Part shown: in pieces, positions 36,605 through 64,000 of the stretch
How positions within the stretch are numbered: position 1 is the first letter of the stretch
How the letters are laid out: every line of letters begins with the position of its first letter
Origin: an uncultured Chloroflexia bacterium
Lineage (GTDB): Bacteria; Chloroflexota; Anaerolineae; CG2-30-64-16
DNA length: 64,000 bases
Direction of reading: 5' to 3'
NCBI GenBank assembly: GCA_963695715.1
Contig: CAVOHP010000010.1
Span: forward strand, 42,749 to 106,748
The notes under the pieces: generated by a model
Databases searched by the model: none
Seen by the model: only the letters and a program-made list of their open reading frames with translations
Told to the model about the DNA's origin: nothing
Program-made: the position numbers and the translations under genes

Positions 36605-38241
<1,637 letters not shown>

Positions 38242-40259: not shown

Positions 40260-41021
40260 ATGAGCCTGATCGGTTGGATACCGACCGTGATCGGCGTGGG
40301 CGCTCGGGCGGCGCTATACCGGCTGATTCTTCATATGGACGGCGCGGCCGCCATCGAAAACAATGTACGCTTACGCTTCACCGATCATATCCACCTCGGC
40401 AAAGGAAGTTATCTCGACTACGGGGTGTATCTTCATGCCTGCCCGGATGGCATCACCATCGGTGAAGGCGCCTATATCATGCACGGCGCCGTGCTGCACG
40501 TGTACAACTTTCGCGACCTCCCGCATGCCTTCATTCGCATCGGCAAAAACAGCCTGATCGGTGAGCTCAACGTGTTGCGGGGTCAGGGCGGCATCACCAT
40601 CGGCGATCGCGTCTATACGGCCCCGCTGGTTCAATTGCTCGCCGTCAATCATATTTACGATGACCCCACCCGCCCGATGGTGGAACAAGGGATCACCGCC
40701 GACGGCATCGTCATCGAAGATGATGTCTGGATCGGCGCAGGCGCCATCGTGACGGATGGCGTGACGATTGGCAGGGGTTCGGTCGTCGCGGCCGGCGCCG
40801 TCGTCACTTCAGATGTACCCCCGCACACGGTGGTCGGCGGAATTCCGGCCCGTGTACTCAAACAGATCGAGGGCACCGTCGCCCACTCGCACGAAGCCGG
40901 TCTACTACTGATGCCGGAGGATCCGCCCCGGCCCCATGCCAGCCGGCCCGCCCCTCGGGGTGGGCCAGGGGGAGAACCCAAATATGACGACATTGTCCCT
41001 GGTCATTCCTGCACTGAATGA
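40260..41021 (+). CDS. hexapeptide-repeat (LbH) sugar O-acetyltransferase
   Basis: Start at the internal ATG (MSLIGW..). Left-handed beta-helix repeats: [52 protein letters not shown]. Confidence 0.7.
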
Positions 41022-42195
41022 AGAAGACGGTATTGAAGAGGTCATGGCGCGCGTCCTATCCGCAAAGCCGGGGCTGGCGGAGCTTGGCATAGACGATCTG
41101 GAACTGATCGTCGTAGATGACGGCTCCACGGATCGCACGCCGGAGTTAGTCGAAGCCACGCCGGGCGTGACGCTCATTCGCCATGAGGTCAACGGTGGTT
41201 ATGGCGCGGCCCTGAAGACCGGCTTCGCGGCGGCGCAGGGCGAATGGGTCGGCTTTCTCGACGCCGACGGGACGTACCCTCCCGAGTACTTCCCCGCCCT
41301 CTGCGCTGCGGGCCTCGAGCAGGACGCCGACATCGTCATCGGCTCTCGCATGGCCGGCGCAGATAGCGAAATGCCGGCCGTCCGCAGGCTGGGCAACATC
41401 ATCTTCGCCAATCTCGTCAGCATCATCAGCGCCCAGAAGATCACAGACTCGGCCAGCGGGATGCGGATTTTCAAGAAATCTATCCTGGAGCAGCTTTATC
41501 CGCTGCCCGACGGTTTGAATTTGACGCCTGTCATGACGACGCGCGCGCTACACGAAGACCTGAAAATGATCGAAGTCGCCATCCCTTACAGCGAGCGGCT
41601 GGGGCGCAGCAAGCTCAACGTCGCCCGCGATGGCGTCCGCTTCGCCCACTCCATCACCTGGACCGCCATGACCTACAACCCGGTTCGACAACTGGGCATG
41701 GTCGGGCTGGGCGCGCTGGGCATTTCGGCGATCATCGGCCTCATCTTGCTGGTCTTGCGCTTGCAAGGCACCACCACGTTGGGCCCCTGGGGCGTGTTCG
41801 CCGTCTACACGGCGGCCGTCCTGGCCGTGGCGGGCGTCAGCCTCTTCATCCTGGGCACGATGTTCAACTATCTGGTGTCGCTCTTCTATCAACAGCCCAT
41901 CCGGCAAGGCCTGTTCGGCAAACCCATCTTCAACACCCCGCTGGATCGTCGCTTCTGGTGGATGGGCCTGGGGGCAATCGCCGTCGGCGTCATCATGGCC
42001 CTTGTCACGCTGATACTGGGTCTCAACGGCTGGCCGATTTCGCGCCTGTGGTTCTGGCAGCTCATTGCAGCCATGACCTCGCTCATCGGTCTGCAACTTC
42101 TGATCGGCTGGTTCATCATCCGCGTCCTCGAAGACCTGAGCCAGCGCGACCGCCTGGTCGGCTATGATATGCGCCGCACCAAACGCAACGGATAA
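40984..42195 (+). CDS. GT2 polyprenol-phosphate glycosyltransferase (DPM1/GtrB-like) with C-terminal TM domain
   Basis: Contains [27 protein letters not shown], then 4 TM helices. Confidence 0.75.
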
Positions 42196-42264
42196 TTTCC
42201 ATACTTGTAGTCTAGCCCCTTGTGGGCGCAGGCGACGGGGCGTATTATTAATGCACGCTGAGGG

Positions 42265-43985
<1,721 letters not shown>

Positions 43986-43989
<4 letters not shown>

Positions 43990-45787
43990 TCCAACCCATA
44001 GACACCACCGAATCGGCTGCCGCATCCGGGCGCCGGTCACAGGCCAACACGACCCGGGCGGCCGTTACGGATCGCCGATTCGTCTTGTTCTGGCTGGCCG
44101 CGCTGGCCTTCTACGCGGCGACCCTGCTGTCGTTCTGGGCCGCATATGACCGGAGCGCGGCATTCGGTAGGCTTGCCGGCCTGACGGCGGGCCTCGTTGC
44201 GGTCGGGGTGATCGCCTTCCTCGCCCGGCGCAGTCGCTACGCCCTGATTGCATGGGGCGGCATGGCCTGTCTTGCGCTTGCCGCGCTGATCGGCGGCTAT
44301 TTTCTGCTGACCTACGATTGGCAGGCCGCCGGCGCCGGCAAGGTCGCTATCATCTATCGGCTGGGCCTCTGGCTTCAAGCGGGTCGGCCCTCGATACCGT
44401 TGCCGTTCACCGAGGACATCAACGGCAATGTCGCCGGCGGCGCGATGATCCTGCTCCTCCCGCTGGGCCTGGGCGGCGCAGGCTGGCTGATCCGCAACTG
44501 TCCGTGGCCGCGGGCGATCAAAGCCGTGGTCGGCGTCATTGTCGCCATCGTCGCCCTGTTCGTGCTCGCCGCCGTCATGCTGACCCTCTCCCGCGGGAGT
44601 TGGCTCGCCGTTGCCGCGGCCACGGCGGCCGCGATCTATATGGCATGGCGAGGACGTCTGAAGGAGGATCACCTCTGGCTCGACGTGATCGCTTTCGGCG
44701 CCTTCACGGCTGCCCTCATCGGGATTTTCGCGGTCGCCGTGCGCTGGCCCGGTTCGAGCGCCGGGGTCGGCGGGCTCGAGGCGTTACTCGGCGCAGCGAC
44801 CGGCGTCGGCGGCTCCGGGGCCAGCAGAGTATCGCTATGGCGAGATATGCTGCCCCTCGTCGCAGACTATCCCCTGACGGGCGGCGGTCTGGGCAGCACG
44901 ATGATGGTCTTTTCGAGCTACGTGCTGATGCTGCACGTGGGTTTCATCGGCCACGCGCACAATCTGTTTCTGCAGATCGCCGTCGAACAGGGCCTGCCGG
45001 CCATGGCGGCCTTCGGGGTGATGACCGGAACCGCGGCATGGGGCGTCCTACGCAGCGCCGGCAGACCGGGTCGGCGGCAACGGTTCCCTGCGCCGGCGGC
45101 CATGGCGGCCATCGTCGCCATGCTCATCCACGGGATGGTGGATGCCGGACCGTGGACCAGCAAACTTGCGCCGGTAGTCTTTCTGCCGCTCGGCTTCGCC
45201 ATTGCAACGTGGGCGGCCCGATGCCGGAAAGTGTACGCTTACCGCGGAACTCCGCGCGCATGGCATGGGCTGCCGGCGCGCTGGCGCTGGCGACGGCGTT
45301 CATCATCGCCCTGCTGCCGGCCACCCGATCGGTGGTCCAATCCAACCTGGGGGCGGTAGCGCAGACCAAAGCCGAGCTCGGCGTCTATACCTGGCCGGAG
45401 TGGCCGATTCAGGATGCCTTACGACGGTCGAAACAGATTGATCTGACGCCCGCCATCCGTCATTATGAAGCCGCGCTGAAGTTGAACCCGGCCAACGCCG
45501 CAGCAAACCGCCGGCTGGGTCAGATCGAGTTATCTCTGGGAGGATACGACGCGGCCACCGCGCACATCCAGGCCGCCTTCGACGCGGCGCCCGGTCGGCG
45601 CCCGGAACGCCAGCTTCTCGGTGAGATCCGCGCGATCAACGGTTCGCCCGAAGACGCGGCGGCGTTGTGGCGCACGATATCTTTGACCCGGCAGCAATTG
45701 GACGTTCGGCATTGGTGGTACAATGAGATCGGTGAACCGGAAAAAGCCGCGCTCATCGCCGAGGGTGCAAGGCTGGCGGGCCGGTAA
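43986..45787 (+). pseudogene. O-antigen ligase/Wzy_C family membrane protein fused to a C-terminal TPR-like domain; frameshift near 45200-45360
   Basis: TTG start overlapping the rSAM stop. About 10 TM helices with ..LSRGSWLAVAAA.. and ..GHAHNLFLQIAVEQG.. The C-terminal soluble part (..AIRHYEAALKLNPANAAANRRLGQIELSLGGYDAATAHIQAA..) is in ORF 44252-45787. Confidence 0.5.
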
Positions 45788-45799
45788 GCGCTTTCGCCC

Positions 45800-46375
45800 A
45801 TGAATGATCAGCCGATTATCGTCGTCTCGGGCTTGCCGCGGTCGGGCACGTCGCTGATGATGAGCATGCTCGAGGCCGGAGGCGTCGAGCTTCTCACCGA
45901 CGGCGAGCGCGTCGCCGATGCCGACAACCCGACCGGGTATTTCGAGTACGAACGGGTCAAGCAACTCGAATCCGGTGATGACCGTTGGCTCGATGACGCC
46001 GGAGGCAAAGCGGTGAAAGTCGTGTCCGCGCAGATCGAACATCTGCCGGCGAAGTATCATTACGACGTCGTCTTCATGCACCGGCGAATTGCCGAGATTG
46101 TCGCATCGCAGGACAGGATGCTTGCCCGGCGGGGCTTACCCACCAACGCCGCGGATCAGGCGCATATTGCGGAGTTGATGCAGAAACATGTGCGTCGAGT
46201 CCGCGCCTGGCTGTCGGCCCAACCCAATATTCGGACGCTCGATGTAGATTACAACGGATTGTTGGACGACCCGTTGCAGCAAATCAGCGAAGTGAACGGT
46301 TTCCTTGGCAAGTCGCTCCATCATCAACGCATGGTGAATGTCATCCGACCGGATTTATACCGCAATCGCGCGTAA
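45800..46375 (+). CDS. sulfotransferase family protein
   Basis: 191 aa. The N-terminus VVSGLPRSGTSLMMSMLEAGG matches the PAPS 5'-phosphate-binding PxxSGTTxL motif of bacterial sulfotransferases. Confidence 0.6.
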   Translation: MNDQPIIVVSGLPRSGTSLMMSMLEAGGVELLTDGERVADADNPTGYFEYERVKQLESGDDRWLDDAGGKAVKVVSAQIEHLPAKYHYDVVFMHRRIAEIVASQDRMLARRGLPTNAADQAHIAELMQKHVRRVRAWLSAQPNIRTLDVDYNGLLDDPLQQISEVNGFLGKSLHHQRMVNVIRPDLYRNRA

Positions 46376-46402
46376 GCGCACAGCAAAGGAGTCAGTTATC
46401 TC

Positions 46403-47347
46403 ATGCCAGAACGGATCCTGGTGACCGGCGGCGCCGGCTTTATTGGTTCGCACATCGCAGATGCCTTCTTAGCGGCGGGCCACGAGGTCATCGTGGTTGA
46501 CAATCTGCATACAGGGCATCGCGAAAACGTCAATCCGGCGGCTCGCTTCTACGAACTGGACATCCGGGACGCCGAGGGTCTGACGCGCCTGATGCTGGCG
46601 GAAAAGCCCACCGCCATTTCTCACCAGGCTGCCCTGGCCGATGTGCGAGGAAGCCTCAGAGAACCGGCCCTTTACGCGACCGTCAACGTCGTCGGCACCA
46701 TCAACATTCTGGAAGCCGCACGCGCAGCCGGAACGGTGCGCAAGCTGCTCTTTGCTTCCACCGGCGGCGCGATCTACGGCAACCCCGATGAACTCCCGGC
46801 GACGGAAGCCTGCCCGCCCCATCCGCTGGACCCCTACGGATCGAGCAAGCTCTCCAGCGAGCACTTCATTGACAATTATCGGCACAATTACGATCTGGAG
46901 TACTGCATCCTGCGCTACGCGAATATTTACGGCCCGCGCCAGGACCCCCGCGGCGAGGCCGGCGTCGTCGCGATCTTCACCGGCGCGATGCTCGAAAACC
47001 GCCCGACCGTCATCAACGGCGACGGCACGCAACAACGTGACTTCCTGTATGTGGGCGATGTCGCCCGCGCCAATGTGCGCGCCATAGAGGGGGGCCAGGG
47101 CATCTATAACCTGGGCACCGGCGTCCCGACCGATATCAATACGATCTTCCGCGAGCTGGCCAGGTTGACCGAATACGAACAACCGGAGCGCCACGGCCCG
47201 GCGAAGCAGGGCGAAGCCTACGCCGTCTATCTCGACGCGGGCCGCGCGGGCCGCGAACTCGATTGGCAGGCCACCGTCTCGCTGTCCGATGGCCTTTCTC
47301 GCACGGTGGATTTCTTCGCCGGGCAATCCAGCAACCAGAAGCGCTAA
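46403..47347 (+). CDS. galE: UDP-glucose 4-epimerase-like NAD-dependent epimerase
   Basis: Contains VTGGAGFIGSH, YGSSK (YxxxK) and an extended SDR fold. Confidence 0.75.
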   Translation: MPERILVTGGAGFIGSHIADAFLAAGHEVIVVDNLHTGHRENVNPAARFYELDIRDAEGLTRLMLAEKPTAISHQAALADVRGSLREPALYATVNVVGTINILEAARAAGTVRKLLFASTGGAIYGNPDELPATEACPPHPLDPYGSSKLSSEHFIDNYRHNYDLEYCILRYANIYGPRQDPRGEAGVVAIFTGAMLENRPTVINGDGTQQRDFLYVGDVARANVRAIEGGQGIYNLGTGVPTDINTIFRELARLTEYEQPERHGPAKQGEAYAVYLDAGRAGRELDWQATVSLSDGLSRTVDFFAGQSSNQKR

Positions 47348-47362
47348 GGAGAGCATTTCCGA

Positions 47363-48352
47363 ATGCGCTATCTAGTCACCGGCGGCGCCGGTTTCATCGG
47401 CAGCCACCTCTGCGAGCTGTTGCTGAGCCAGGGCCACCGCGTTGTCGCCGTAGACAATCTCGCGACGGGGCAACTGGCGAACATCGCCCACCTCCAGCCC
47501 CTGCCGCACTTTCAGTTCGTGCGCGAGACGATCATGAACACGCAGGTGCTCGACCGTCTCACCAGCGAATCCGACGCCGTGATCCATCTGGCCGCGGCCG
47601 TGGGCGTTCAGCTCATCGTCCAGGACCCTGTCCATACCATCCAGACCAACATCAACGGCACCGAGGCCGTGTTGACGGCGGCGCACCGCTACGGCTGCAA
47701 AGTCGTCATCGCCTCGACCTCGGAAGTCTACGGCAAGGGCGTCCGCGTACCCTTCAAAGAGGACGACGACCGCCTCATGGGTCCGACGACGCGCAGTCGC
47801 TGGAGCTATGCCGCTTCGAAGGCCGTTGATGAGTTTCTGGGCCTGGCCTACTATCACCAGTTCGGCCTGCCGGTCGTCGTCGCCCGGCTGTTCAACACGG
47901 TCGGGCCGCGCCAATCCGGGCAATACGGCATGGTTGTGCCGCGCTTCGTTCGGCAAGCCCTGCGCGGCGAGACGCTCACCGTGTACGGGGATGGGAGCCA
48001 ATCGCGCTGCTTCTCCGACGTGGCCGACGTCATCCGCGCCTTGACGCAACTCGCCGAACACCCCGCGGCCGTGGGCGAGGTCTTCAACGTCGGCTCCAAT
48101 CAGGAGATCACGATTTTGGAGCTGGCGAGGAAGGTGATCGGGATGGCCGGCTCGACCTCTGAGGTCGCCTGCATCCCCTACGATGAAGCCTACGGGCCGG
48201 GGTTCGAGGACATGCAACGCCGGGTGCCGAGCATCGCCAAGATCGGGGCGCTCACCGGATATGCCCCCCGCAATACGCTGGATGACACGCTGCATAAAGT
48301 CATCGCCTATGAGCGAGCCAAACTCGAAGCGCCGGACGATCAGAGAGACTAG
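47363..48352 (+). CDS. NAD-dependent epimerase/dehydratase (UDP-glucuronate decarboxylase/UXS-like)
   Basis: Contains VTGGAGFIGSHL, YAASK and an extended SDR fold. Confidence 0.7.
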   Translation: MRYLVTGGAGFIGSHLCELLLSQGHRVVAVDNLATGQLANIAHLQPLPHFQFVRETIMNTQVLDRLTSESDAVIHLAAAVGVQLIVQDPVHTIQTNINGTEAVLTAAHRYGCKVVIASTSEVYGKGVRVPFKEDDDRLMGPTTRSRWSYAASKAVDEFLGLAYYHQFGLPVVVARLFNTVGPRQSGQYGMVVPRFVRQALRGETLTVYGDGSQSRCFSDVADVIRALTQLAEHPAAVGEVFNVGSNQEITILELARKVIGMAGSTSEVACIPYDEAYGPGFEDMQRRVPSIAKIGALTGYAPRNTLDDTLHKVIAYERAKLEAPDDQRD

Positions 48353-48361
48353 AAAACAGAC

Positions 48362-49255
48362 ATGCCCACTTCGCAAGATATGACGTCGCCTTCGGTGGGC
48401 AGCCCGCTGACCGATATCGGGCCGTTGCAGACAACGCTCATCAAGCCGGACAGCGGCCTGGTTCTGCCCGATCTGCGCGCGGTATGGGAGTATCGGGAGC
48501 TGTTGCTCTTCCTCGTTTGGCGCGATGTCAAAGTGCGCTACAAGCAGACCGCGCTCGGCGTGGGTTGGATTCTGCTCCAACCGCTCCTCAGCGTGGTCGT
48601 CTTCACCGTGATTTTCGGCATGTTGCTGAATGTGCCTTCCGGCGACGTGCCCTATGCGGTCTTCGCGCTGGCCGGTCTGTTGCCCTGGCAATACTTCTCG
48701 AGTTCGTTGAGCCGCGTCGGCACGGGTCTCGTCAACAGCTCACAATTGATCACCAAGGTCTACTTCCCGCGGCTGATCATTCCGGCTTCCGGGGTGCTCT
48801 CCACACTGGTGGATTTCGCGATCGGCTTCATCGTCCTGCTGGCGTTGCTCCTGTTCTACCGCATTCCGCTCACGCCGCGCATCGTCATGATCGGGCCTTT
48901 CTTGCTTCTCGCCATTGTCACGGCGCTGGCGTTTGGTCTTTGGCTCGCCGCCCTCAACGTGCGTTATCGCGATATCAACTATCTGATCCCGTTTCTGCTC
49001 CAGCTCTGGATGTATGTCACGCCCGTGATCTACGGGGCCGCCTTGATTCCCGAGCAGTACCGGTTTTTGCTGGCTCTCAACCCCATGACGGCGGTCGTGG
49101 AAGGCTTCCGCTGGTCTATCATCGGTACGCCCGGCTCCGCAGCGATCTCTTCCATACCGTTGTTCGCCGTCTCGATCTCGATCACACTGGTGACGCTCGT
49201 GACCGGCCTGATCTACTTCCGTAACACCGAGCGCACTTTCTCGGATATCATCTGA
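48362..49255 (+). CDS. wzm: ABC-2 type polysaccharide export permease
   Basis: 297 aa with 6 TM helices. LLFLVWRDVKVRYKQTALGVGW is the Wzm/TagG signature. Confidence 0.75.
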   Translation: MPTSQDMTSPSVGSPLTDIGPLQTTLIKPDSGLVLPDLRAVWEYRELLLFLVWRDVKVRYKQTALGVGWILLQPLLSVVVFTVIFGMLLNVPSGDVPYAVFALAGLLPWQYFSSSLSRVGTGLVNSSQLITKVYFPRLIIPASGVLSTLVDFAIGFIVLLALLLFYRIPLTPRIVMIGPFLLLAIVTALAFGLWLAALNVRYRDINYLIPFLLQLWMYVTPVIYGAALIPEQYRFLLALNPMTAVVEGFRWSIIGTPGSAAISSIPLFAVSISITLVTLVTGLIYFRNTERTFSDII

Positions 49256-49260
49256 TCGTC

Positions 49261-50427
<1,167 letters not shown>

Positions 50428-50542
50428 TGGTTGAGTCGGGCGATTTTTACGGCAGCGGCAAGCTGCCCGATGCATCGTGGGCGGGCTACTTCTACGCTTC
50501 GCAGGCATGGGATGTCAACCCCGCCGCCGAGGTGCGCCAATC

Positions 50543-52930: not shown

Positions 52931-52943
52931 GATTGGATAGCCC

Positions 52944-53492: not shown

Positions 53493-53529
53493 TGCCTGTT
53501 CATCGTTTGCTTTTTAGGAGTTAGCGCAT

Positions 53530-54390: not shown

Positions 54391-54393
54391 CCC

Positions 54394-55594
54394 GTGTCAA
54401 TCCCTAGCGTCAGCGTGGTCATCCCCGCCTACAATCACGGGGCATATCTCACCCGCACCATCCAGAGCGCCCTGGCGCAAACCTGGCAAGACCGCGAGAT
54501 CATCGTGGTGGATGATGGCTCACAGGATGATACCCCGGAGGTGGCCGCGTCGTTCGGCTCCGCTATCCGCTTCATCCGGCAGGCAAACAAAGGGATGGCC
54601 GGCTCGCGCAACACCGGGATCGGCCAGGCGCGCGGAGAGTTCGTCGCTTTCCTCGATGACGATGACCTCTGGGAACCTGAATATCTGGCGCACGTCATCC
54701 CGGCCCTGAAGCAAGACCCCGCCGCCGGCGCGGCGCGCGCCGGTTTCCAGATCATGGACGGCGCGGGAACGCGCCTGCCCCAGACAACTCATCTCGAAGT
54801 CGCGCCCGACCAAATGTACGATCGGTTGATTGACGGTGGATTCTTCCCTCCGTGCACGGTCACCGTTCGCAAAGCCGCCTTCGAGAAGCTGGACGTCTTC
54901 GACACGAACCTGCAAGGGCTGGCCGATTGGGACATGTGGCTGCGCATCTCACGAGAGTATCGCTTCCTCAGTGTGCCGGAAACGCTGGTGCTGTATCGGG
55001 TGCATGGCGGAGGGCTGTCCTCGAATGTCGAGCACATGTTCACCGACCACCTCAAAGCCGTGCGAAAACACTTCGGGCCGGAAGAGGGCGACCCGGTGAC
55101 GTGGCCCACAGACCGTCGGCGCGCGTATGCCGCAGCTTACTTCAGCGCGGCCCTCGCTTACTATCAGAAGGGTGACGCTGACCCTGGGCGATCAGCAACT
55201 CACCAGGGCCCTTCAGATCTACCCACCTCTGGCGCAACGCGTCGATGTGTTCTACGAATTGGCGCTCGCCGATCAGCCCCGCGGCTTTCGCGGGTTCGCG
55301 GCGTCGGACGAGCTGGCCGAACGCGCCGCGTTGCTCTACGCCAGGATCGAGACCGTGCATGCCTCTGCCGGCCCCGAAATGGCCGGCTTTCATACCGTGG
55401 CCGTTGCCAACGCAGATCTCGCCCTGGGCATGTTGGCCGACCAGGCCGGCGATTGGCCGCAAGCCCGGCATTACCTGCTGCGCGCCGCGCGTGCAAACCC
55501 GAGGCTTCTGACGAACGCATCCTTTACACGCCGCCTGGCAAAAGTGACCGCAGGCAAACAGGTCGCCGGCCTGGCGCGCCGGCGTTCAGGCTGA
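54394..55594 (+). pseudogene. GT2 glycosyltransferase with C-terminal helical (TPR-like) domain; frameshift near 55130-55200
   Basis: N-terminus VSVVIPAYNHGAYL..VVDDGSQDDT..DDDD. The C-terminal about 140 aa (..ALQIYPPLAQRVDVFYELALAD..) are in ORF 55127-55594. Confidence 0.55.
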
Positions 55595-55609
55595 CACACC
55601 TCAGGCATC

Positions 55610-56873
55610 ATGAAATTTCTCTTTCTCTCGAACCTTTACCCACCCGCTGAGATGGGCGGACTGGAACAGATCTGCGAAGAAGTCGTGCACGCCGTTCCGC
55701 GCCGCCGGGCACGAAGTCATCGTGCTGACCGCCCGTCACAGCGCCGAACGCGCCCCCGCCGACGAGCAAGGCATCGTCCGCACGCTGCACTTGCAAGCCG
55801 ATGTCAGCCACTATCGGCCCGCGGACTTCTTCTTGCTGCGTAGGTCTCAGGAAGAGGAGAACCGCGCGGAGCTCTCGCGCCTGATCCGTGATTTCCGCCC
55901 CGACATCATCCTGGTGTGGGGCATGTGGAACCTGAGTCGTGCCCTGCCGGCGCTCGCCGAAGCACTAATGCCCGAACGGGTAGCCTACTATATGGCGTCC
56001 TATTGGGCCAACGACCCCGATATCCACGTCGAATACTGGACCAAACCCGCCTCCCGCCCATTGACTCAGCTTGCGTTCAAGCCGTTCCAGCTTGCAGCCC
56101 GGTCACAGCTCCATCACGAAGCCTACCCACCGAAGCTGGCGTTTCGGAACGTGGCCTGCGTCAGTCAATACGTGCGCGAGGCGCTGGTCTCCGGCGGCAA
56201 GATATCCCCCTCTTCCGAAGTGATCTTGCTCGGCATCCACCCCGAGGACTTTGTGTGCGCCGGCGAGGCGCGGCAGCCGGCGGCGGATGGCCGGCTGCGC
56301 CTCCTCTACTTCGGGAGCCTGCTCGAGAAGAAGGGCGTCCACACGGCGGTCGAAGCGCTCGGGCTGCTGAAACAACGCGGACAGCATACCAACCTCCAGC
56401 TCACCATCCTGGGCGGCGGCCACCCCGATTATGAAGCGCACCTGCGCCGCCGGATTGCCGAGCTCGGCCTGCAAGATCACGTATCCATGCACGGGCGTGT
56501 CGCCAGGGATGAAGTTCCCTCCTGGTTGGGCCAGTCGGACGTCTTTTTGTTTACCTCAATTTGGCCCGAGCCGATGGCGCGCAGCGTCATGGAAGCGATG
56601 GCCGCCGGTATGCTCGTCATCGGTACGGAAGTCGGCGGCCAGTCCGAGATGCTCGTCCACGGTCAGAACAGCCTGACGTTTCCGGCCGATGACGCCGCGA
56701 CGCTCGCCGACCGGATCGCGCAGGCCGCCTCCGATCCGGAAGCCGCCCATCGTCTGGCCGCAGCCGGTAAGCAGCTCATCCTGTCTGATTTCGTCATGAC
56801 GCGCTATTTCGACGAACTCGAAGACTGGCTTCGAACCATCAATGACGGGCGCGAGGCGGCCAACCGATCATGA
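55610..56873 (+). pseudogene. GT4 family glycosyltransferase; frameshift near 55700-55845
   Basis: The N-terminal 30 aa MKFLFLSNLYPPAEMGGLEQ.. are in ORF 55610. The remainder ..LLYFGSLLEKKGV..EPMARSVMEAMAAGMLVI.. is in ORF 55722-56873. Confidence 0.6.
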
Positions 56874-56895
56874 TACCGTTTCATCCTGTGACCGC

Positions 56896-58083
56896 ATGAG
56901 AATCCTCCAGCTCAGCCAATTCGGTACGCCAACCGGCGGGGCCGAAGGATACATCACCGATGTCTCCCGCGCCTTGCTGGCCGCAGGCCACGAAACCCGG
57001 CTGGTCTGCTTCCAACCCGGCGACCCGGCAGATCTGATGCCCGGTACCGTATGTGTTCCCGTCTCGCCCGAACACCCCCTCGAAACGACGCTCGCGTCCC
57101 TCGAGGCGATCATTCGCGAGTACAACCCCGACGTGGCATATCTCCACCTCATGTATTCCAACGACGTGCTGGGGTGGGTTTCCGAACGCCTGCCGGTCCT
57201 CGCCTACGTGCATGGACCCTACGTCACCTGCCCCGGCATGGCGCAATATTTGCGGCGCAGCGCGCGGGTATGCCCGCGCAGCGGCAACTGGGGTTGTCTC
57301 TATTATGCCCAGACCGAACGCTGTTGTTTCGGGCGCAGCCCCATGCGGCACATCGAGCGCGTGATCGCCGCGCGGGGCTCGACCGCGGTCTACCGCAAGA
57401 TTCGTTCCGCCGTCGGCAGCGCCTACATGCGCGAGCTGATGGTGCGCAACGGCATCCCCCGTGACCAACTGGAAATCCTGACGCCGGTCCTGATGGACGG
57501 CCCCTTCGCTGTCTACTCACCGGCTCCCGAGCCGCATACCTTTCTCTTCGCCGGGCGCATCTTGCCCGAAAAAGGCATCGGCGTCCTCCTCGAAGCCGCG
57601 GCGGGCTTGACCGGAGATTGGCGCCTGGTCATCGCGGGTGATGGGCCGAAGATGGAAACGTGGCAAGACCAGATCACGGCCCTGCGCATCGCCGATCGGG
57701 TCAGCTTCGCAGGCCGGCAGGCCGGCGCCGGCATGGACCGCCTGTACCGCCAATGTGGATTCACCGTCGTGCCTTCGCTCTGGCCCGAGCCGTTCGGGCA
57801 CGTCGGGCCTGAAGCCTTCGCACGCGGACGCCCGGTCGTCGCCTTCGCGACCGGCGGTATCCCCGACTGGTTGCAGGATGGCGTCAATGGCATCCTGGTC
57901 GAGCCGGGCAGCGTCGAGAAATTGCGCACCGCGTTGTCCACCATGTTGCAATCACCCGCGTTACAAGACGACCTGGGGCGACAGGCCCTCGACATCGCAA
58001 ACACCGCGTGGTCTTCGCAAGAGCATGTTGACCGGCTCATCGAAATGCTGAAGCGGTCACGCGCAGCTTTTCACCCGCGTTAG
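56896..58083 (+). CDS. GT4 family glycosyltransferase
   Basis: MRILQLSQFGTPTGGAEGY..FLFAGRILPEKG..EPFGHVGPEAFARGRPVV (GT-B C-terminal domain). Confidence 0.75.
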   Translation: MRILQLSQFGTPTGGAEGYITDVSRALLAAGHETRLVCFQPGDPADLMPGTVCVPVSPEHPLETTLASLEAIIREYNPDVAYLHLMYSNDVLGWVSERLPVLAYVHGPYVTCPGMAQYLRRSARVCPRSGNWGCLYYAQTERCCFGRSPMRHIERVIAARGSTAVYRKIRSAVGSAYMRELMVRNGIPRDQLEILTPVLMDGPFAVYSPAPEPHTFLFAGRILPEKGIGVLLEAAAGLTGDWRLVIAGDGPKMETWQDQITALRIADRVSFAGRQAGAGMDRLYRQCGFTVVPSLWPEPFGHVGPEAFARGRPVVAFATGGIPDWLQDGVNGILVEPGSVEKLRTALSTMLQSPALQDDLGRQALDIANTAWSSQEHVDRLIEMLKRSRAAFHPR

Positions 58084-58108
58084 CTTCATGCCAGGGTAAA
58101 ATATCGCT

Positions 58109-59317
58109 TTGCGAATCCTCTATCTCTCGACGTGGTGCCCGATTCCGCCTGACAATGGCGCAAAAATCCGCGTGAACTACCTCATGCGCGCCCTCGCGGC
58201 GCGTCATGAAGTCACGCTGGTCGCCTATGCACCCGATGGCTTGTCGGGTGATGAAATCAAGGCCGCAGACCCGACGCTTGCGGAAGCTCACACTGTGCAT
58301 GAAGACGCCTTCGCATACACGAGGCTCCCCGGCATCGCGAAGTTCTTAAGTCCGATGCCCGTTGCTTTCTGGCGGCATCCGGCAATGACGCAGCAACTCA
58401 AGGCGGTCACGGCCCGGATCACCCCCGACGCGATCGTCGCCATGAGTTTGCCCGTTGCCCGCCACGCACTTGAGCTCCCGGCCCCGCGGATACTGGACGT
58501 TGAAGCGTCTTTGAGCCTCCAGATGGAAGAGCGCAGAAAGCAGGCCACAAGCGCCGCCGCCGGCCTGCGCGGCGTTGTCGCCTGGCGCAAATCCACAGGC
58601 GCCGAAACTCGGGCCATTCGCGCGTTCGAAGCGTCTACATTTGTCTCGCAAACCGAAAAAGACTATCACGCGGCCCTGCTGGGCCGCCATGCAAAACGCT
58701 TAAGCGTGATCCCCAATGGCGTGGATCTTGACCACTTGAGGCCGGGCCTGACCCCGAAGCAACCGGCGCATTTGATCTTCAACGGATCGTTGACCTATCG
58801 TGCGAACCTCGATGCGATGCAATACTTCCTTGCGGAAATCTACCCATTGGTGAAGCAGCGTATGCCCGATGTCGAGCTGACGATCACCGGTTCGACAAAG
58901 GATGTTCCGATCTCTGAGCTGTCCATAGACCCCTCAGTTCACTTCAGCGGCCATGTGCCCGACATCCGGCCGCTGGTCGCCGGGGCTACGGTTTGCGTCG
59001 TTCCGTTGCGACAGGGCGCCGGCACACGGCTGAAGATCCTCGAAGCGATGGCTTTGGGCACGCCGGTCGTCTCCACAGGCAAGGGCATCGAAGGGTTGAA
59101 CGCCGTTCCAGAGCGCGATTTCCTGCCGGCCGACGATCCGCAGGGTTTCGCCGCGCAGACCATCCGGTTGCTCGAAGACGCCGACCTGCGCTGCTCACTG
59201 GCGGAAAACGCGCGCGGACTGATCGAACGCGAATATGATTGGACGGACATTGGCGCCAGGTTCTGCCGACTGATCGAAGAAGTCGTCTCAGAGCAAACGA
59301 CGAGGCGTAGTGGATAG
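58109..59317 (+). CDS. GT4 family glycosyltransferase
   Basis: MRILYLSTWCPIPPDNGAKIR..FNGSLTYRANLDAM..GAGTRLKILEAMALGTPVV. Confidence 0.75.
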   Translation: MRILYLSTWCPIPPDNGAKIRVNYLMRALAARHEVTLVAYAPDGLSGDEIKAADPTLAEAHTVHEDAFAYTRLPGIAKFLSPMPVAFWRHPAMTQQLKAVTARITPDAIVAMSLPVARHALELPAPRILDVEASLSLQMEERRKQATSAAAGLRGVVAWRKSTGAETRAIRAFEASTFVSQTEKDYHAALLGRHAKRLSVIPNGVDLDHLRPGLTPKQPAHLIFNGSLTYRANLDAMQYFLAEIYPLVKQRMPDVELTITGSTKDVPISELSIDPSVHFSGHVPDIRPLVAGATVCVVPLRQGAGTRLKILEAMALGTPVVSTGKGIEGLNAVPERDFLPADDPQGFAAQTIRLLEDADLRCSLAENARGLIEREYDWTDIGARFCRLIEEVVSEQTTRRSG

Positions 59318-60749
59318 CATGAGCGTCTTGACGAACCGATCCCGCGCTTTCCCCTGGCGAGTGCTTGTGGTCATCGCGGCTACCCTGGGGCTGGCGGGCT
59401 TGATGGGTTTGCGCCCATCCATCCAACTCCTCGCGGTTGTGATCGCCGGGTTTGGCGCCGTGCTGCTGTTGCTCAAGCCCCAACTCGGCTTGTTGGCGTT
59501 GGTCGTGATGGCCCTCGTCGCTCCGCTCCAGTTCAACACCGGTACCGATGTCGCCGTCAATCCCACGACCCTCTTCGTCCCGGCCTTGATCGGCGTCTGG
59601 CTACTGTCTATGATCGTGCGCAAGGATCTGGTCTTCGTGCATTCGCGCGTCAGCCTGCCGCTGATCCTATTCTTGATCTCGTCAATGTTGTCGCTGGTCA
59701 TCGGGCAAGCAACGTGGGACCCGTTCGTGCCGCAATCCAATAGCTTCGTCCTGGTGCAAATCGCCCAATGGGCCATCTTTGCTTTCTCCGCAGGCGCTTT
59801 CTGGATGGCTGCCAACTTGACCACCGATGAGATCTGGTTGCGCAGGATTCTATTCACATTCATCGGGCTGGCTGCGATCATCGGGCTGGTGCGTTCGATT
59901 CCGGCGGCCTATCCGTTCGTGGTCAAGGCGTTCACCTTCGCCGTATATCGCCCACCCTTCTGGCTCCTGTTGGCCGCCATGGCCGGGGGGCAACTGCTTT
60001 TCAATCAACGCCTGGCGACGCCGGTTCGCGTCCTCCTGGGCATGATCGTCCTGATGACCCTCATCTTAGTCTTTACGATAGAACGTGCAACGCTCTCATA
60101 TTGGATTGGCGTCGCCGCCGCGCTCGCAGTTCTGCTCTGGCTCAAGCTGCAACGCGGGCGCATCCTCATCATCGCCCTGATCGGCCTGCTCCTGCTCACC
60201 GGCCAGGCGCTGCCGCGCGCTTATGATTTTGCCGGCGGCGAAAGCGAATGGGTCGAAAGCGGCGGCTCACGCATCACCCTCGCCGAACGCGTCATCTCCG
60301 TCACCATGCGCAACCCCATCACAGGGCTCGGGCCGGCCGCCTATCGCCCTTATGCCCGGATGAAACCGCTGCCCTACGGCGACGCCTTCTGGGTTGCGCC
60401 TAACGTATCTGCCCATAACAACTACGTGGATCTTTTCGCGCATTCGGGGATCCTCGGGTTGGGCCTGTTCCTCTGGTTCATCGTTGAGTTCATCCTGCTC
60501 TGTCGTCGCGTCAGTCGCAAGAAGCTCAGCGGTTTCTCTCTCGGTTATGTCAACGGCGTTCTGGCAACCGTCGTCGGCGCGCTGGTCCTCATGATGCTCG
60601 CCGACTGGATTCTGCCGTTCGTCTACAACATCAGCTTCATCGGCTTCCAGGCCAGCGTACTGGTCTGGTTGATGATGGGCGGCGTGGTGGCCATTGACCA
60701 GTGGACCGAAGCGAATGACGATTCGGAGCCAGGAGCGGGCACCGCATGA
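59310..60749 (+). CDS. O-antigen polymerase/ligase (Wzy_C) family membrane protein
   Basis: 479 aa with 10 or more TM helices and a periplasmic loop ..ITGLGPAAYRPYARMKPLPYGDAFWVAPNVSAHNNYVDLFAHSGILG (H..N.Y motif). Confidence 0.6.
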   Translation: MDSMSVLTNRSRAFPWRVLVVIAATLGLAGLMGLRPSIQLLAVVIAGFGAVLLLLKPQLGLLALVVMALVAPLQFNTGTDVAVNPTTLFVPALIGVWLLSMIVRKDLVFVHSRVSLPLILFLISSMLSLVIGQATWDPFVPQSNSFVLVQIAQWAIFAFSAGAFWMAANLTTDEIWLRRILFTFIGLAAIIGLVRSIPAAYPFVVKAFTFAVYRPPFWLLLAAMAGGQLLFNQRLATPVRVLLGMIVLMTLILVFTIERATLSYWIGVAAALAVLLWLKLQRGRILIIALIGLLLLTGQALPRAYDFAGGESEWVESGGSRITLAERVISVTMRNPITGLGPAAYRPYARMKPLPYGDAFWVAPNVSAHNNYVDLFAHSGILGLGLFLWFIVEFILLCRRVSRKKLSGFSLGYVNGVLATVVGALVLMMLADWILPFVYNISFIGFQASVLVWLMMGGVVAIDQWTEANDDSEPGAGTA

Positions 60750-61690
60750 GTGAGCAGCCTCCACGCCTCGCCATCGTCATCGTGAGTTGGAATACGCGCA
60801 CGCTGCTTGCCGACTGTCTTGCCGCGGTCTTTCGCACGGTGCATCGGTATCCCTTCGAAGTCTTTGTCGTAGATAACGCGTCGAGCGATGGCAGCGCCGA
60901 GTACATCCGTCGCGAGTTCCCCCAGGTCAACCTGATCGAGACGGGCGCGAATCTCGGGTTTGCGCGCGGCAACAATGTTGCGTTGCGCCAAACCCGGCGC
61001 GAATTCGTGCTGCTCCTCAACCCCGACACGGTCGCCCATGATGGCGCCATAGACGCCCTGTGCGACGTGCTGGATGCCGTCCCCGAAGTCGGCGCAGTCG
61101 GCGCGCAACTCCTCAACCCCGACGGCACGTTGCAGCATTCCTGGGGCCAGTTCCCCTTCGCAGAGCGCGAGGTGCCCCTGCTGCGCACGCGCTTCGCAAA
61201 CGACCCGGATCCGTTCACGGTCTCCGTTAATGGAACGCGCCTATCGCTCTTACGCGTCGATTGGGCCAAAGGCGCGTGCCTGCTGATGCGTGGCGAAGCA
61301 TTGGCCCAGGTTGGTCTCCTCGATGAAGACTATTGGCTCTATACCGAAGAAACAGACTGGTGCTACCGCGCGCGCCAGGTCGGCTGGGAAGTGGTCGGCC
61401 GACCGGACGCCTTCATCACCCACGTCGAGCAAGCGTCTTCGGCGCAACGCCTGGGCAAGAGTTATGTCAACTTTGCGGATTCGCGGGTTCTCTTTGCACG
61501 CAAATATCAGGGCCGGCTGGCCGCCGCCGCCGTCTGGTGCGTCTTCGCCGCCCGCTCGGTTGTTTGGTTCATTTTTCCGCAACGCTCGCATCTGGGCCGC
61601 CCCGAAACGGGCTACGCGGAAAAAGACGTGCGCGCCGCATACAAGACATTTCTCCAGACGACGTTCAGACGCATGATTGGCCGCGCCTGA
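60746..61690 (+). CDS. GT2 family glycosyltransferase (rhamnosyltransferase-like)
   Basis: Contains LAIVIVSWNTRTLL..VVDNASSDGS..NLGFARGNN.. Confidence 0.75.
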   Translation: MSEQPPRLAIVIVSWNTRTLLADCLAAVFRTVHRYPFEVFVVDNASSDGSAEYIRREFPQVNLIETGANLGFARGNNVALRQTRREFVLLLNPDTVAHDGAIDALCDVLDAVPEVGAVGAQLLNPDGTLQHSWGQFPFAEREVPLLRTRFANDPDPFTVSVNGTRLSLLRVDWAKGACLLMRGEALAQVGLLDEDYWLYTEETDWCYRARQVGWEVVGRPDAFITHVEQASSAQRLGKSYVNFADSRVLFARKYQGRLAAAAVWCVFAARSVVWFIFPQRSHLGRPETGYAEKDVRAAYKTFLQTTFRRMIGRA

Positions 61691-61730
61691 TTCCAGGCGC
61701 GCATAAAGACATCACGAAACGCGGGGCCAT

Positions 61731-63110
61731 ATGACTTCACTCTTGCGCCGCCTGAACTTACCGCTCATTATCCTGCTCGCGATCTTGCTGCGGCTGGGGA
61801 TCGGGCTCTACCTCGGCGATACAGTTCCCGACAACACCGATGAAACGTCTTACTCTGCCCTGGGGGCGCGGCTGGCAACGGGGCACGGCTACTCCTTCGA
61901 TCGCGGTTGGTATCCGTTCACGTCACCCGATACGCCCACGGCCCACTGGTCGTTTCTGTACTCTGCGTTTGTGGCGGCCGTCTACAGCGTCACCGGCCCC
62001 CACCCGCTCGCCGCGCGCCTCGTCGGCGCCGTCCTCGGCGGCATCCTTCTCCCGTTGACCATGGTTTTCTTCGCCCGGCGTCTCTACCGCGAAGGTCCCA
62101 CCAATCCCACGTCAGATTCACAGCCGCTCGCGCCTCAAGCCCTGTCGGCTGCGCATATCTTGCCGTTGCTTTCGACCTTGCTCGCGGCGATCTATCTCTT
62201 TTTCGCGATTTTCGCCGCCAGCCTGATGACCGAAACATTCTACATTACGGCGCTGCTATGGTCGCTCGAACGCGGTCTGGCCCTTCAGCAAACGCTCCGC
62301 TCGACCGATGCGCCCCGCCGTCAGGTCTGGTTGATCGGGCTGGGCCTGGGGATCGCGTTGGGAATCGCCACGTTGCTCCGTCAATCCATCTTACCCTGGG
62401 CGCCGATCATGGGCCTATGGTTGCTCTGGCGCGGCTGGCGTCACCAAAGACTCGGCGCGGCCTTTCAAGCGATGACGGTCGCGGCCATCGTCGTCATTGC
62501 GTGTATTCTTCCGTTCACGCTGCGCAATTACCGCGTGTATCACGAATTTCTTCTGCTGAACTCGAACGCCGGCTATGCGATGTACTCCGCGCAGCATCCG
62601 ATGCACGGCGCGAGTTTCAGAGAATACGACGCCGCGCCCATGCCTGAGGGTCTGGGCCAGCTCAACGAGGCGCAGCTCGACAAAATACTCATGGCGCGCG
62701 GGATCGGGTTCATCCTCGAAGACCCAGGGCGCTATGCCCTGTTGTCGCTCAGCCGCGTCCGCGACTATTTCGCCTTCTGGCCGACGCCCAACACGCCGCT
62801 CGTCAGCAACCTGGGTCGGGTCTTCTCCATTGCCCTCTTCCTGCCCTTCATGCTCTACGGCATCTGGCTTGCGGCGCGCAACCCGTCCCGTTCGCCGGCG
62901 CACGCATTATTGCATCGCGAAGATGTCGCGTTCCTGCTGCTCTTCATGGCCTTCTACAGCCTGCTGCACATCCTGACCTGGGCCATGGCGCGCTACCGGT
63001 TGCCTGTAGACGCCGTCGCGTTGCCGTTTGCGGCCCTCGCCTTGCTCGATCTCGCGGCAAGGCTGAAACTCGTCACGCTCGCCCCATCGCCTGGCGCCGG
63101 CGCAGCCTGA
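61731..63110 (+). CDS. GT39/GT83-like (PMT/ArnT family) membrane glycosyltransferase
   Basis: 459 aa. N-terminus ..DETSYSALGARLATGHGYSF.. then about 11 TM helices. Confidence 0.65.
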   Translation: MTSLLRRLNLPLIILLAILLRLGIGLYLGDTVPDNTDETSYSALGARLATGHGYSFDRGWYPFTSPDTPTAHWSFLYSAFVAAVYSVTGPHPLAARLVGAVLGGILLPLTMVFFARRLYREGPTNPTSDSQPLAPQALSAAHILPLLSTLLAAIYLFFAIFAASLMTETFYITALLWSLERGLALQQTLRSTDAPRRQVWLIGLGLGIALGIATLLRQSILPWAPIMGLWLLWRGWRHQRLGAAFQAMTVAAIVVIACILPFTLRNYRVYHEFLLLNSNAGYAMYSAQHPMHGASFREYDAAPMPEGLGQLNEAQLDKILMARGIGFILEDPGRYALLSLSRVRDYFAFWPTPNTPLVSNLGRVFSIALFLPFMLYGIWLAARNPSRSPAHALLHREDVAFLLLFMAFYSLLHILTWAMARYRLPVDAVALPFAALALLDLAARLKLVTLAPSPGAGAA

Positions 63111-63118
63111 ACTGTCGC

Positions 63119-64000
63119 ATGCGGATCATTTACGTCCTCCTGTCGCCCACCTTCGGGATGCACCAATACACCGCCGACCTCGCAAATCGCGCGGCAGCCG
63201 GCGCGTTCAGCAACGGCGCAAAACCGGATGTCCATGTCGTGACGACCACGGGATTCCCCGGCGGCGCCTACGGACCGGACATCACGATTCATACGCCGCT
63301 ATCGTCAACGGGCACGGGCTTCTCATTCGAAGGGGCGGCAATCGGGACATTGCGGCGCACCATCCGCGCCGTCACGCAACTCGCGGCCTGTCAAGCGGGG
63401 AATCACGCGGCCGCCGGACCGGTGATCGTCCATATTACCGGCGTGCATCTCTGGAACGTTGCACTGGTGCGCGCGCTGATCGCGCATGGCATCCCCGTAG
63501 CTCACACGCTGCATGATCTCCAGGCGCACAGTGGCGTCAGATTCGGCGCATTGATCCCACGTTGGAATAACCTGGTCATCAGGGCCGGCGCGCATATCCT
63601 CGTCCACGGCCGGCGCTATCGCGCGCAACTCCTGGATCAGGGGGTCTCGCCCGATCGCGTGACCTGCGCGCCGCTGCTTCACGGGTTTTGGAAATTCGGC
63701 GCAGGGCCGGATGACAATATATCGGCCGGTTTGTATGCTACGGAACTTGACAGCGCCGCGCAACGGTGCCAAGATGACATCCGTAGCGTGGTCCTATTCT
63801 TTGGCCGTGTGGAGGCGTACAAAGGGGTAGACACCTTGCTATCTGCGTGGGCGCATGTATGGTCACAGTCGGGCGATGATTGCCCAGACGTTCGCCTGGT
63901 GGTTGCCGGCGCCTGGCTCCGAGGCGTCGCCCCCCCCACAGACCTCCATAACGTTGAGTTCCGAAATCATCTCATCACCGACGATGAAGCCATTGAATTG
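63119..64000 (+). CDS. GT4 family glycosyltransferase, 3' end beyond window
   Basis: Manual translation from ATG 63119 (MRIIYVLLSPTFGMHQYTADL..HITGVHLWNVALV..VLFFGRVEAYKGVDTLL..) stays open to position 64000. It is absent from the ORF track because no stop falls inside the window. Confidence 0.55.
   Translation, partial: MRIIYVLLSPTFGMHQYTADLANRAAAGAFSNGAKPDVHVVTTTGFPGGAYGPDITIHTPLSSTGTGFSFEGAAIGTLRRTIRAVTQLAACQAGNHAAAGPVIVHITGVHLWNVALVRALIAHGIPVAHTLHDLQAHSGVRFGALIPRWNNLVIRAGAHILVHGRRYRAQLLDQGVSPDRVTCAPLLHGFWKFGAGPDDNISAGLYATELDSAAQRCQDDIRSVVLFFGRVEAYKGVDTLLSAWAHVWSQSGDDCPDVRLVVAGAWLRGVAPPTDLHNVEFRNHLITDDEAIEL

Follow-up and report, generated by a model that had tools for sequence, protein, structure and literature searches.

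Bacterial glycans that are exported by a Wzm/Wzt ATP-binding cassette (ABC) transporter can carry a cap, and the caps described to date are methyl, methyl-phosphate and 3-deoxy-D-manno-octulosonic acid (Kdo) (PMC9445017). Here we describe a locus with a transporter of this type in a 64,000-nucleotide stretch of DNA, hereafter the window, from an uncultured member of the Anaerolineae (Chloroflexota). The locus is one tightly packed string of genes on the same strand, running from 40.1 kb to the end of the window (64000, in the window numbering that we use for its coordinates), and it encodes Wzm, Wzt, a radical S-adenosylmethionine (SAM) enzyme and a small sulfotransferase. A preliminary description of this DNA had proposed that the sulfotransferase is a chain terminator of the WbdD type and that the extra domain of Wzt recognises a non-sugar cap; the latter wording is too narrow, as Kdo stands beside methyl and methyl-phosphate among the known caps. 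Comparison with homologous clusters, which that description had suggested as a check, was run against Anaerolineae loci and found syntenic relatives. In light of these we consider it probable, with some reserve, that this is a composite glycan locus made up of a conserved core, an ABC module and a 3' block, in which the sulfotransferase provides an optional decoration and not an obligatory cap. The Anaerolineae are abundant filamentous bacteria of sludge, sediments and soils and, to our knowledge, there is almost no experimental knowledge of their cell envelope.

The sulfotransferase and the Wzm/Wzt module

Genes were identified by Pfam and NCBIfam hidden Markov model (HMM) searches of the window proteins. 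The sulfotransferase, which had been assigned to the 3'-phosphoadenosine 5'-phosphosulfate (PAPS) type and placed at exactly the coordinates given in Table 1, scores over the curated cutoffs of both Sulfotransfer_3 (48 bits, cutoff 27) and Sulfotransfer_1 (31.6 bits, cutoff 22). Its 5'-phosphosulfate loop, G11-L-P-R-S-G-T-S18, aligns to that of TPST1/2 and is invariant in 100 members of the family, as are R95 and S103, which probably constitute the 3'-phosphate-binding (3'-PB) motif. Neither a signal peptide nor a transmembrane (TM) segment was found in its 191 residues. The AlphaFold2 (AF2) model has a predicted local distance difference test (pLDDT) score of 91.7, and its top 27 Foldseek matches in the PDB are all sulfotransferases, with TPST1/2, the heparan-sulfate 3-OST, Teg12, the sulfotransferase domain of CurM and Stf0 among the structures matched. 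Judged by sequence and model, the protein is a genuine PAPS-type sulfotransferase with a predicted activity. The small-sulfotransferase family to which it belongs is large (>7,800 clusters) and common in Chloroflexota. In 65 metagenome loci, the immediate neighbours of its members include Phosphodiest (12), Cys_Met_Meta_PP (8), aminotransferases and sulfatase (4). The commonest neighbour in the metagenome set L089-L168, type I phosphodiesterase/nucleotide pyrophosphatase (12 of 99), hints at a non-export role for these small enzymes in most lineages.

The closest relative of the window is the Anaerolineae metagenome-assembled genome (MAG) GCA_038214535.1, whose loci (L004, L009 and L169) share ~82-83% DNA identity with it and have all their genes intact, save for the sulfotransferase. 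At the corresponding site (L004, 13451-13567) only a remnant of the open reading frame (ORF) survives, consisting of its first ~30 nt (the start region) and its last ~35 nt (~12 codons) around an internal deletion, and the same remnant is present in the independently assembled L005. No sulfotransferase is encoded anywhere in the ~40-kb L004 locus, in which every other gene is intact. Horizontal insertion of the gene into the lineage of the window is ruled out, since the remnant shows that the gene was ancestral at this site. After this loss the carbohydrate-binding domain (CBD) of the L004 Wzt still shares 86-87% identity with that of the window, which is hard to reconcile with sulfate as the ligand of that domain, whereas CBD identity between the window and other Anaerolineae loci is only 14-23% (51-80% in the nucleotide-binding domain, NBD). 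With the enzyme deleted in L004 and L005, the domain conserved and the locus intact, neither a requirement for the sulfotransferase in export nor its co-variation with the CBD is seen.

Among these close relatives the decoration genes are distributed as a mosaic: in the window the sulfotransferase is the only one, the second syntenic contig (L001) has the sulfotransferase and an Acyl_transf_3 protein, and L004 has Acyl_transf_3 and a second Hexapep protein of the left-handed beta-helix (LbH) type. The Acyl_transf_3 gene and second LbH acetyltransferase gene of L169 (2222-3241 and 5756-6340) are missing from the window at the junctions 55598-55615 and 58083-58109. The sulfotransferase also diverges faster than the genes around it, with 69% identity between the window and L001 as against 83-91% for its neighbours. 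Its position is fixed, however: the order of a Wzy_C protein with tetratricopeptide repeats (Wzy_C/TPR), sulfotransferase and short-chain dehydrogenase/reductase (SDR) recurs in L001, L037, L089 and L090, at sulfotransferase identities from 86% down to 49%, which speaks for its involvement in the glycan pathway. Comparative evidence of this kind suggests that the enzyme is most likely a dispensable, strain-variable substituent enzyme rather than a WbdD-like terminator, and that the glycan may carry acetyl and possibly sulfate groups. Of the O-acetylated and possibly sulfated or C-methylated product first envisaged, we therefore retain the acetyl and the possible sulfate decoration and not the C-methylation, for reasons given below.

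The single-nucleotide deletion in wzt was repaired with L004 as the guide, giving the 428-aa protein used here; an earlier manual repair of the C-terminus had brought no gain in the Wzt_C score. That score, 29.6 bits, falls just under the cutoff of 30.4, and the 87%-identical L004 orthologue reaches 33.3 bits. Against the full-length Wzt of Aquifex aeolicus (8dku/7k2t), the window protein scores 217 bits to 8dku in an alignment that runs from the NBD into the CBD (33-355, extending to residue 378), is weak within the CBD and stops before Trp362. An extension of 150-165 aa is present in 15 of the 17 Wzt proteins from the window and the other Anaerolineae loci. The glycan-binding extension of Wzt that had been claimed thus holds, and the results for Wzm and for the NBD and CBD of Wzt together support an ABC-transporter-dependent pathway with a CBD-bearing Wzt. 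Pfam searches detected no kinase, methyltransferase or Kdo-transferase terminator domain between 40 and 64 kb, where the sulfotransferase, dispensable in L004, is the sole modifying enzyme not of the acyl type. An initiating polyprenyl-phosphate phosphoglycosyltransferase was likewise not found in the window; a syntenic relative has Bac_transf ~1.2 kb past the point at which the window ends.

The radical-SAM core and the frame breaks

After repair of its reading frame, the radical SAM protein gives a full-length match to Radical_SAM (97 bits), and its CX3CX2C core is present, with C295, C299 and C302 (numbering of P0121, an intact 557-aa orthologue) invariant. Three more cysteines of the family outside this motif, C353, C367 and C387 (P0121), are invariant or nearly so, and an auxiliary Fe-S cluster could be bound by them. 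In NCBIfam the top match is HpnJ (TIGR03471), which scores 197.4 bits where the cutoff is 577.6 and is matched over profile positions 138-444 only; ApyD, BchE, MCR glutamine methylase and PhpK also match, none of them near its cutoff. By sequence, the best solved relative is AprD4 (95 bits). The AF2 model is of moderate quality (pLDDT 61), the homologue alignment being shallow in diversity; with that proviso, Foldseek again places AprD4 first (E 2e-20, ~510 columns), followed by MgmA, TsrM, OxsB, CysS and TokK (~500 columns). AprD4, which has the same combination of Rossmann and radical-SAM domains, does not bind cobalamin, and HpnJ is grouped with enzymes whose transformations are of another kind or unknown (PMC12931638). 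The model thus supports a two-domain architecture of a Rossmann-like domain and a radical-SAM barrel, and the enzyme is a genuine member of the radical SAM superfamily, as had been claimed.

Scanning species-representative genomes with P0121 yielded 80 loci, nearly all from MAGs of the class Anaerolineae (Anaerolineales, Caldilineales, Ardenticatenales, Promineifilaceae and Thermoflexales), in which the radical SAM protein is 60-100% identical; between orders of the class the range is 60-93%. Genes were mapped by local phmmer. Among loci with enough flank, an AglJ-like family 2 glycosyltransferase (GT2) lies directly upstream of the radical SAM gene in 62 of 64, an LbH acetyltransferase (Hexapep) lies upstream in 58 of 64, and at least 33 of 57 have Wzy_C/TPR downstream. 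Of 43 loci, only 20 have Wzm within 10 kb and 14 have Wzt. A Caldilineaceae genome and Ca. Amarolinea dominans share the identical core order. Gene order and conservation indicate that the radical SAM gene is a class-wide core gene, not a variable decorating enzyme. Indeed, the conservation of its module, far above that of serotype-type modifiers, points to a core envelope function and, by analogy, this function may be to make and use a modified lipid-linked sugar. For the core GT2 the top NCBIfam matches, all under cutoff, are AglJ, dolichyl-P hexose transferase, ArnC and PgfS. A literature search on sulfotransferases with Wzt and on the Chloroflexi envelope with O-antigen ligase found no paper on the module, only an Aeromonas cluster and general reviews, and the combination of acetyltransferase, polyprenyl-P GT2, radical SAM enzyme and Wzy_C/TPR has no corresponding characterised pathway.

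The radical SAM gene had been described as frameshifted; its breaks are real features of the assembly and are not specific to it. When the window is set against the intact L004 orthologues, eight of the 17 genes compared show a change of frame (those for hydantoinase, aminotransferase, SerS, GlcNAc-2-epimerase, the radical SAM enzyme, Wzy_C/TPR, Wzt and the BNR protein), and two further frame-broken genes were seen in the comparison with L169. In a base-level alignment to L004, the worst-hit gene is the essential serS, with 11 gaps whose length is not a multiple of three, mostly single-base insertions, clustered at 36967-37991; the radical SAM gene has eight, seven single-base insertions and one deletion, clustered at 42615-43878, and the genes for RmlC and RmlD have none, such that the quality of the assembly is very uneven along the contig. 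Substitutions are strongly biased to the third codon position in every gene, with counts by position of 32/14/160 (78% third) for the radical SAM gene, and the manually repaired protein is 93% identical to P0121. L001 is also noisy and has its frame breaks elsewhere, with serS intact. Given that the essential serS is broken too, that substitutions favour third positions and that the repaired protein so closely matches an intact one, the frameshifts are almost certainly assembly indels and the radical SAM gene is intact in the organism. Genome-wide pseudogenisation was ruled out as their cause by the pattern of purifying selection and by the fact that an essential gene is hit worst. The source assembly is probably of an error-prone, long-read type.

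Alternative readings and a proposed pathway

In one alternative, the sulfotransferase would be a terminator in the manner of WbdD from E. coli O9a: by sulfating the non-reducing end it would halt elongation and create the cap to which the CBD of Wzt has to bind before export. The gene does lie in the same packed string of genes, 2 kb upstream of wzm (with two SDR genes between them, so that it is not adjacent to wzm and wzt as first described), and the locus has no methyltransferase, kinase or Kdo-transferase terminator. Moreover, other Anaerolineae have sulfotransferases immediately 3' of wzt. L060 (CP070764.1, Anaerolineae) encodes, directly 3' of wzm-wzt, a 684-aa fusion of an N-terminal Sulfotransfer_3 domain and a C-terminal family 4 glycosyltransferase (GT4) (16650-18701), a candidate bifunctional terminator; Ca. 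Amarolinea dominans has three tandem sulfotransferase paralogues after wzt (L007, 19264-21725); and a ~400-aa type of the enzyme occurs at or close to wzt in L081 (13926-15182, immediately after wzt) and L006 (20014-21216). The arrangements in L081, L007 and L060 keep a sulfate cap a possibility for those lineages. Aeromonas salmonicida also has an ORF with a sulfotransferase domain right after wzt, yet sulfate was not detected in the O-antigen of this species (PMC4483657). Given that the known caps are those listed above (PMC9445017), that the window enzyme is a single 191-aa domain with no other Pfam domain and with no kinase, methyltransferase or coiled-coil ruler, that the neighbours of its family elsewhere are heterogeneous and unrelated to glycan export, and that the closest relative has lost it and still keeps an intact locus and a conserved CBD, we find the WbdD-type proposal improbable for the window. 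A passenger enzyme with a non-glycan acceptor, such as a small metabolite or a tyrosine in a protein or peptide, is also unlikely, though somewhat less so: the best matches in sequence and structure are tyrosylprotein sulfotransferases, the neighbours across the 65 metagenome loci are heterogeneous and one family member (L003) has no glycan context at all, so that the acceptor may not be a glycan. However, the Foldseek TM-scores (~0.55-0.6) do not discriminate the class of acceptor, the insertion point between the Wzy_C/TPR and SDR genes has been kept in five lineages while identity fell to 49%, and a further family member (L002) lies in another polysaccharide locus, beside Wzz/BY-kinase and flippase genes.

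The radical SAM enzyme, too, has been read differently. The preliminary description gave it a B12-binding domain and a chemistry typical of C-methylation, which would make it a cobalamin-dependent class B C-methyltransferase acting on an unactivated sugar carbon. Foldseek aligns its two-domain model, of moderate quality, with TsrM, MgmA, OxsB, CysS and TokK, and some databases name its homologues 'B12-binding domain-containing radical SAM protein'. However, the repaired window protein has no match to the B12-binding domain PF02310 at E<=0.01, and among the 120 homologues listed the only precomputed domain is PF04055; the best match by both sequence and structure is the cobalamin-free AprD4 (PMC12931638); HpnJ, the best NCBIfam match, is not a methylase; and the C-methylase models score far under their cutoffs (HpnR 63 bits against 650, KedN5 48 against 700, Trp 2-C-MT 38 against 500). 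Cobalamin dependence and methyl transfer are thus not supported, and we regard the methyltransferase as a doubtful candidate. That the gene is a true pseudogene, contributing nothing to the glycan of this organism, is scarcely credible: eight indels of this kind inside 1.3 kb would suggest it, but serS has eleven of them in the same assembly, eight of 17 genes are hit, the related and also noisy L001 is broken at other sites and has serS intact, the repaired protein is 93% identical to an intact orthologue, and the third-position bias is not compatible with a neutral decay that yielded eight indels.

Our preferred reading, a composite locus with sulfate as an optional decoration, has evidence against it as well. 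No methyltransferase, kinase or Kdo-transferase was found in the window as a candidate for making the cap, which this reading fails to explain. The loss seen in L004 may have happened recently, and that locus may itself have ceased to function only lately. It is the position of the gene, and that only, which places sulfate on the glycan, the neighbours of the small sulfotransferases elsewhere being mostly not glycan genes and the closest structures being protein-tyrosine sulfotransferases. The role that we give to the core is drawn from family-level analogy, with all NCBIfam matches of the radical SAM protein far under the equivalog cutoffs and a structural model of only moderate quality.

The substrates and the order of steps that we infer are as follows. 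The core GT2 would make a polyprenyl-phosphate-linked sugar, which the acetyltransferase and the radical SAM enzyme would modify in the cytoplasm; the latter would act on the sugar moiety, as do AprD4 (deoxygenation) and HpnJ (ring contraction), with C-methylation only one of the options. The Wzy_C/TPR ligase-like protein would act outside the cell. The ABC module (Wzm, Wzt, GT2s, RmlC and RmlD, the two SDRs and the BNR protein) would build, on a polyprenyl carrier in the cytoplasm, a glycan that probably contains rhamnose. Before export, the co-transcribed sulfotransferase would most likely add a PAPS-dependent sulfate to this glycan or to the lipid-linked precursor, and this substituent would be strain-variable and dispensable, like the products of the acyl- and acetyltransferase genes that vary between relatives. 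Finally, Wzt would recognise a terminal cap, the glycan would be exported and the Wzy_C-family protein would ligate it to an acceptor. A bolder proposal combines two claims: that sulfate is a new export-licensing cap in Anaerolineae, made by wzt-adjacent sulfotransferases of which the window enzyme is a diverged, optional member, and that the core module yields a lipid-linked sugar, modified by radical chemistry, on which envelope glycans are anchored or primed. Jointly, we give these two claims rather little credence.

Overall, this is a fairly ordinary surface-polysaccharide cluster of the Anaerolineae. Our data suggest that these bacteria use canonical Wzm/Wzt-CBD export, joined to a strongly conserved radical-SAM core, and that non-sugar decorations such as sulfate and acyl groups are swapped among close relatives in the fashion of serotype determinants. 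If sulfation of the glycan were true, an anionic substituent would join the short list of modifications on ABC-exported bacterial glycans. The main yield is a well-annotated polysaccharide locus, and the leads that it offers are the conserved core and the wzt-adjacent sulfotransferases of sister lineages.

Gene content and relation to known systems

The features of the locus and three further features of the window are collected in Table 1. The HMM searches found all of wzm, wzt, rmlC and rmlD, the two SDR epimerase-like genes and the LbH acetyltransferase gene that had been described; rmlA and rmlB were not found within the locus. Of the nine glycosyltransferases counted previously, four GT2s and four GT4s are confirmed by HMM, and a ninth is obtained only if the 459-aa membrane protein is taken as a GT-C. 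That protein has no Pfam or NCBIfam match of its own (PMT and PMT_2 give none at E<=0.1), and, among its homologues of 55-60% identity, ~40% either contain PF13231 PMT_2 or go under a GT39/ArnT-like name. At the equivalog level, NCBIfam assigned neither this GT-C-like protein nor the sulfotransferase, the radical SAM enzyme, the GT2, the two SDRs or the second Wzy_C protein. The BNR protein recurs in other loci.

Table 1. Genes of the glycan locus, in window numbering, followed by other features of the window
Feature	Coordinates	Strand	Evidence
LbH (hexapeptide) O-acetyltransferase, first core gene	40152-41021	+	Hexapep 55 bits; WcaF/LacA-like (NCBIfam); 90% identity to L004 orthologue
GT2, polyprenyl-phosphate glycosyltransferase type (AglJ/DPM1/ArnC/PgfS-like), C-terminal TM helices; conserved core	40984-42195	+	Glycos_transf_2 116 bits; 96% identity to L004
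Radical SAM enzyme with N-terminal Rossmann-like domain; conserved core	42310-43989	+	Radical_SAM 97 bits (repaired frame)
Membrane protein of the Wzy_C (O-antigen-ligase) family, TPR at its C-terminus; conserved core	43989-45787	+	Wzy_C 68 bits, TPR matches; intact L004 orthologue 599 aa; frame break near 45216
191-aa cytoplasmic PAPS-type sulfotransferase (predicted), accessory gene	45800-46375	+	Sulfotransfer_3 and Sulfotransfer_1 over cutoff
GalE-like NAD-dependent epimerase (SDR)	46403-47347	+	Epimerase 221 bits; GalE TIGR01179 196 bits, under 262 cutoff
UXS/LegB-like SDR, dehydratase or decarboxylase type	47363-48352	+	Epimerase 202 bits; LegB-like 182 and ArnA-C/UXS-like 144 bits, both under cutoffs
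Wzm ABC-2 permease	48362-49255	+	ABC2_membrane PF01061 60.2 bits (cutoff 26.9); galactan/KpsM-type permease matches
Wzt ATPase with C-terminal carbohydrate-binding domain	49261-50546	+	ABC_tran PF00005 84.5 bits; Wzt_C 29.6 bits; 1-nt deletion near 50413
GT2 directly 3' of wzt	50543-51499	+	Glycos_transf_2 107 bits; 88% identity to L004
BNR (beta-propeller) protein, secreted or anchored	51496-52930	+	BNR_2/BNR matches; intact L004 orthologue 475 aa; frame break near 52130
RmlC, dTDP-4-dehydrorhamnose 3,5-epimerase	52944-53492	+	dTDP_sugar_isom 228 bits
RmlD, dTDP-4-dehydrorhamnose reductase	53530-54390	+	RmlD_sub_bind 284 bits
GT2	54394-55594	+	Glycos_transf_2 125 bits; frame break near 55177; L169 orthologue aligned in two frames
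Three GT4s	55610-56873, 56896-58083, 58109-59317	+	Glycos_transf_1 / Glyco_trans_1_4 matches; orthologues in L169
Second Wzy_C-family membrane protein, ligase or polymerase	59310-60749	+	Wzy_C 50.7 bits; 87% identity to L169 orthologue
GT2	60746-61690	+	Glyco_tranf_2_3 72 bits
459-aa polytopic membrane protein, probably GT-C (PMT_2/ArnT-like)	61731-63110	+	via homologues
GT4 cut by window end	63119-64000	+	Glyco_trans_4_4 / Glyco_transf_4 matches
Third Wzy_C (O-antigen-ligase family) gene, far from the locus	2893-4395	-	
tmRNA gene	7298-7712	-	
tRNA-Arg(GCG)/tRNA-Ser(GCT)/tRNA-Ser(TGA) cluster, just downstream of serS	36501-36809	-	

The 3' block (the GT4s, the second Wzy_C protein, a GT2 and the GT-C-like protein) looks, from its gene content, like a Wzy-type heteropolysaccharide system, so not all nine glycosyltransferases can be assigned to the ABC route; no flippase was seen for the block. 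Past the point at which the window ends, the relative's string (L169) continues with a GT4, the Bac_transf initiating transferase, another GT4, a Tricorn-like protein and a Wzz/GNVR/ParA bacterial tyrosine kinase (BY-kinase). The 24 kb probably represent more than one glycan system, running past the window end. Upstream of 40.1 kb the content is housekeeping (serS, three tRNAs, EF-G, Der, tmRNA and an S41 protease). A 723-aa ORF on the forward strand (29318-31489) joins a thioredoxin-like 2Fe-2S region, a histidine phosphatase and a SAM methyltransferase; in this noisy assembly, it could be an artefactual fusion.

Among known systems, the locus is most readily compared with the ABC-dependent O-polysaccharide and S-layer-glycan routes of E. 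coli O9a, K. pneumoniae O12 and the WzmWzt of Aquifex aeolicus. It shares with them Wzm, a Wzt extension of the jelly-roll type, assembly by GT2 and GT4 enzymes in the cytoplasm, rml genes and a ligase-like protein of the Wzy_C (WaaL) family. In contrast to them, it has no recognisable terminator, whether a kinase/methyltransferase like WbdD, a Kdo transferase like WbbB or a methyltransferase; its host is probably a monoderm and without lipopolysaccharide; and it is joined to a class-specific core with a radical-SAM enzyme. With WbdD itself the sulfotransferase shares only the idea that a gene near wzm and wzt encodes an enzyme which attaches a non-sugar substituent in the cytoplasm: the window enzyme has no kinase, methyltransferase or coiled-coil domains, does not lie beside wzt and is dispensable in a close relative. 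The wb(salmo) cluster of A. salmonicida, alike by description, is ABC-dependent and includes an ORF of ~216 aa with a sulfotransferase domain as well as an ArnT-like ORF (PMC4483657); there, the ORF directly follows wzt, and sulfate was not found in the O-antigen.

For the core, the nearest characterised enzymes are AprD4, a 1,2-diol dehydratase from the aminoglycoside pathway, and HpnJ, which contracts the glucosamine ring of hopanoids. Both combine an N-terminal Rossmann-like domain with a CX3CX2C barrel, as the window enzyme does, and both act on sugar moieties as non-methylases. However, the window enzyme is only ~22% identical to AprD4 and falls far under the 577-bit equivalog cutoff of HpnJ, and its context, unlike that of either pathway, is a polyprenyl-P-type GT2, an LbH acetyltransferase and Wzy_C/TPR. 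The core GT2 and the GT-C-like protein, occurring in one locus, also recall the three-component systems of extracytoplasmic glycosylation, which pair a GT2 of the GtrB/ArnC/PgfS type with a GT-C. In the window the two genes are 20 kb apart and no GtrA-type flippase was detected; in contrast to those systems, the invariable partner of this GT2 is a radical-SAM enzyme.

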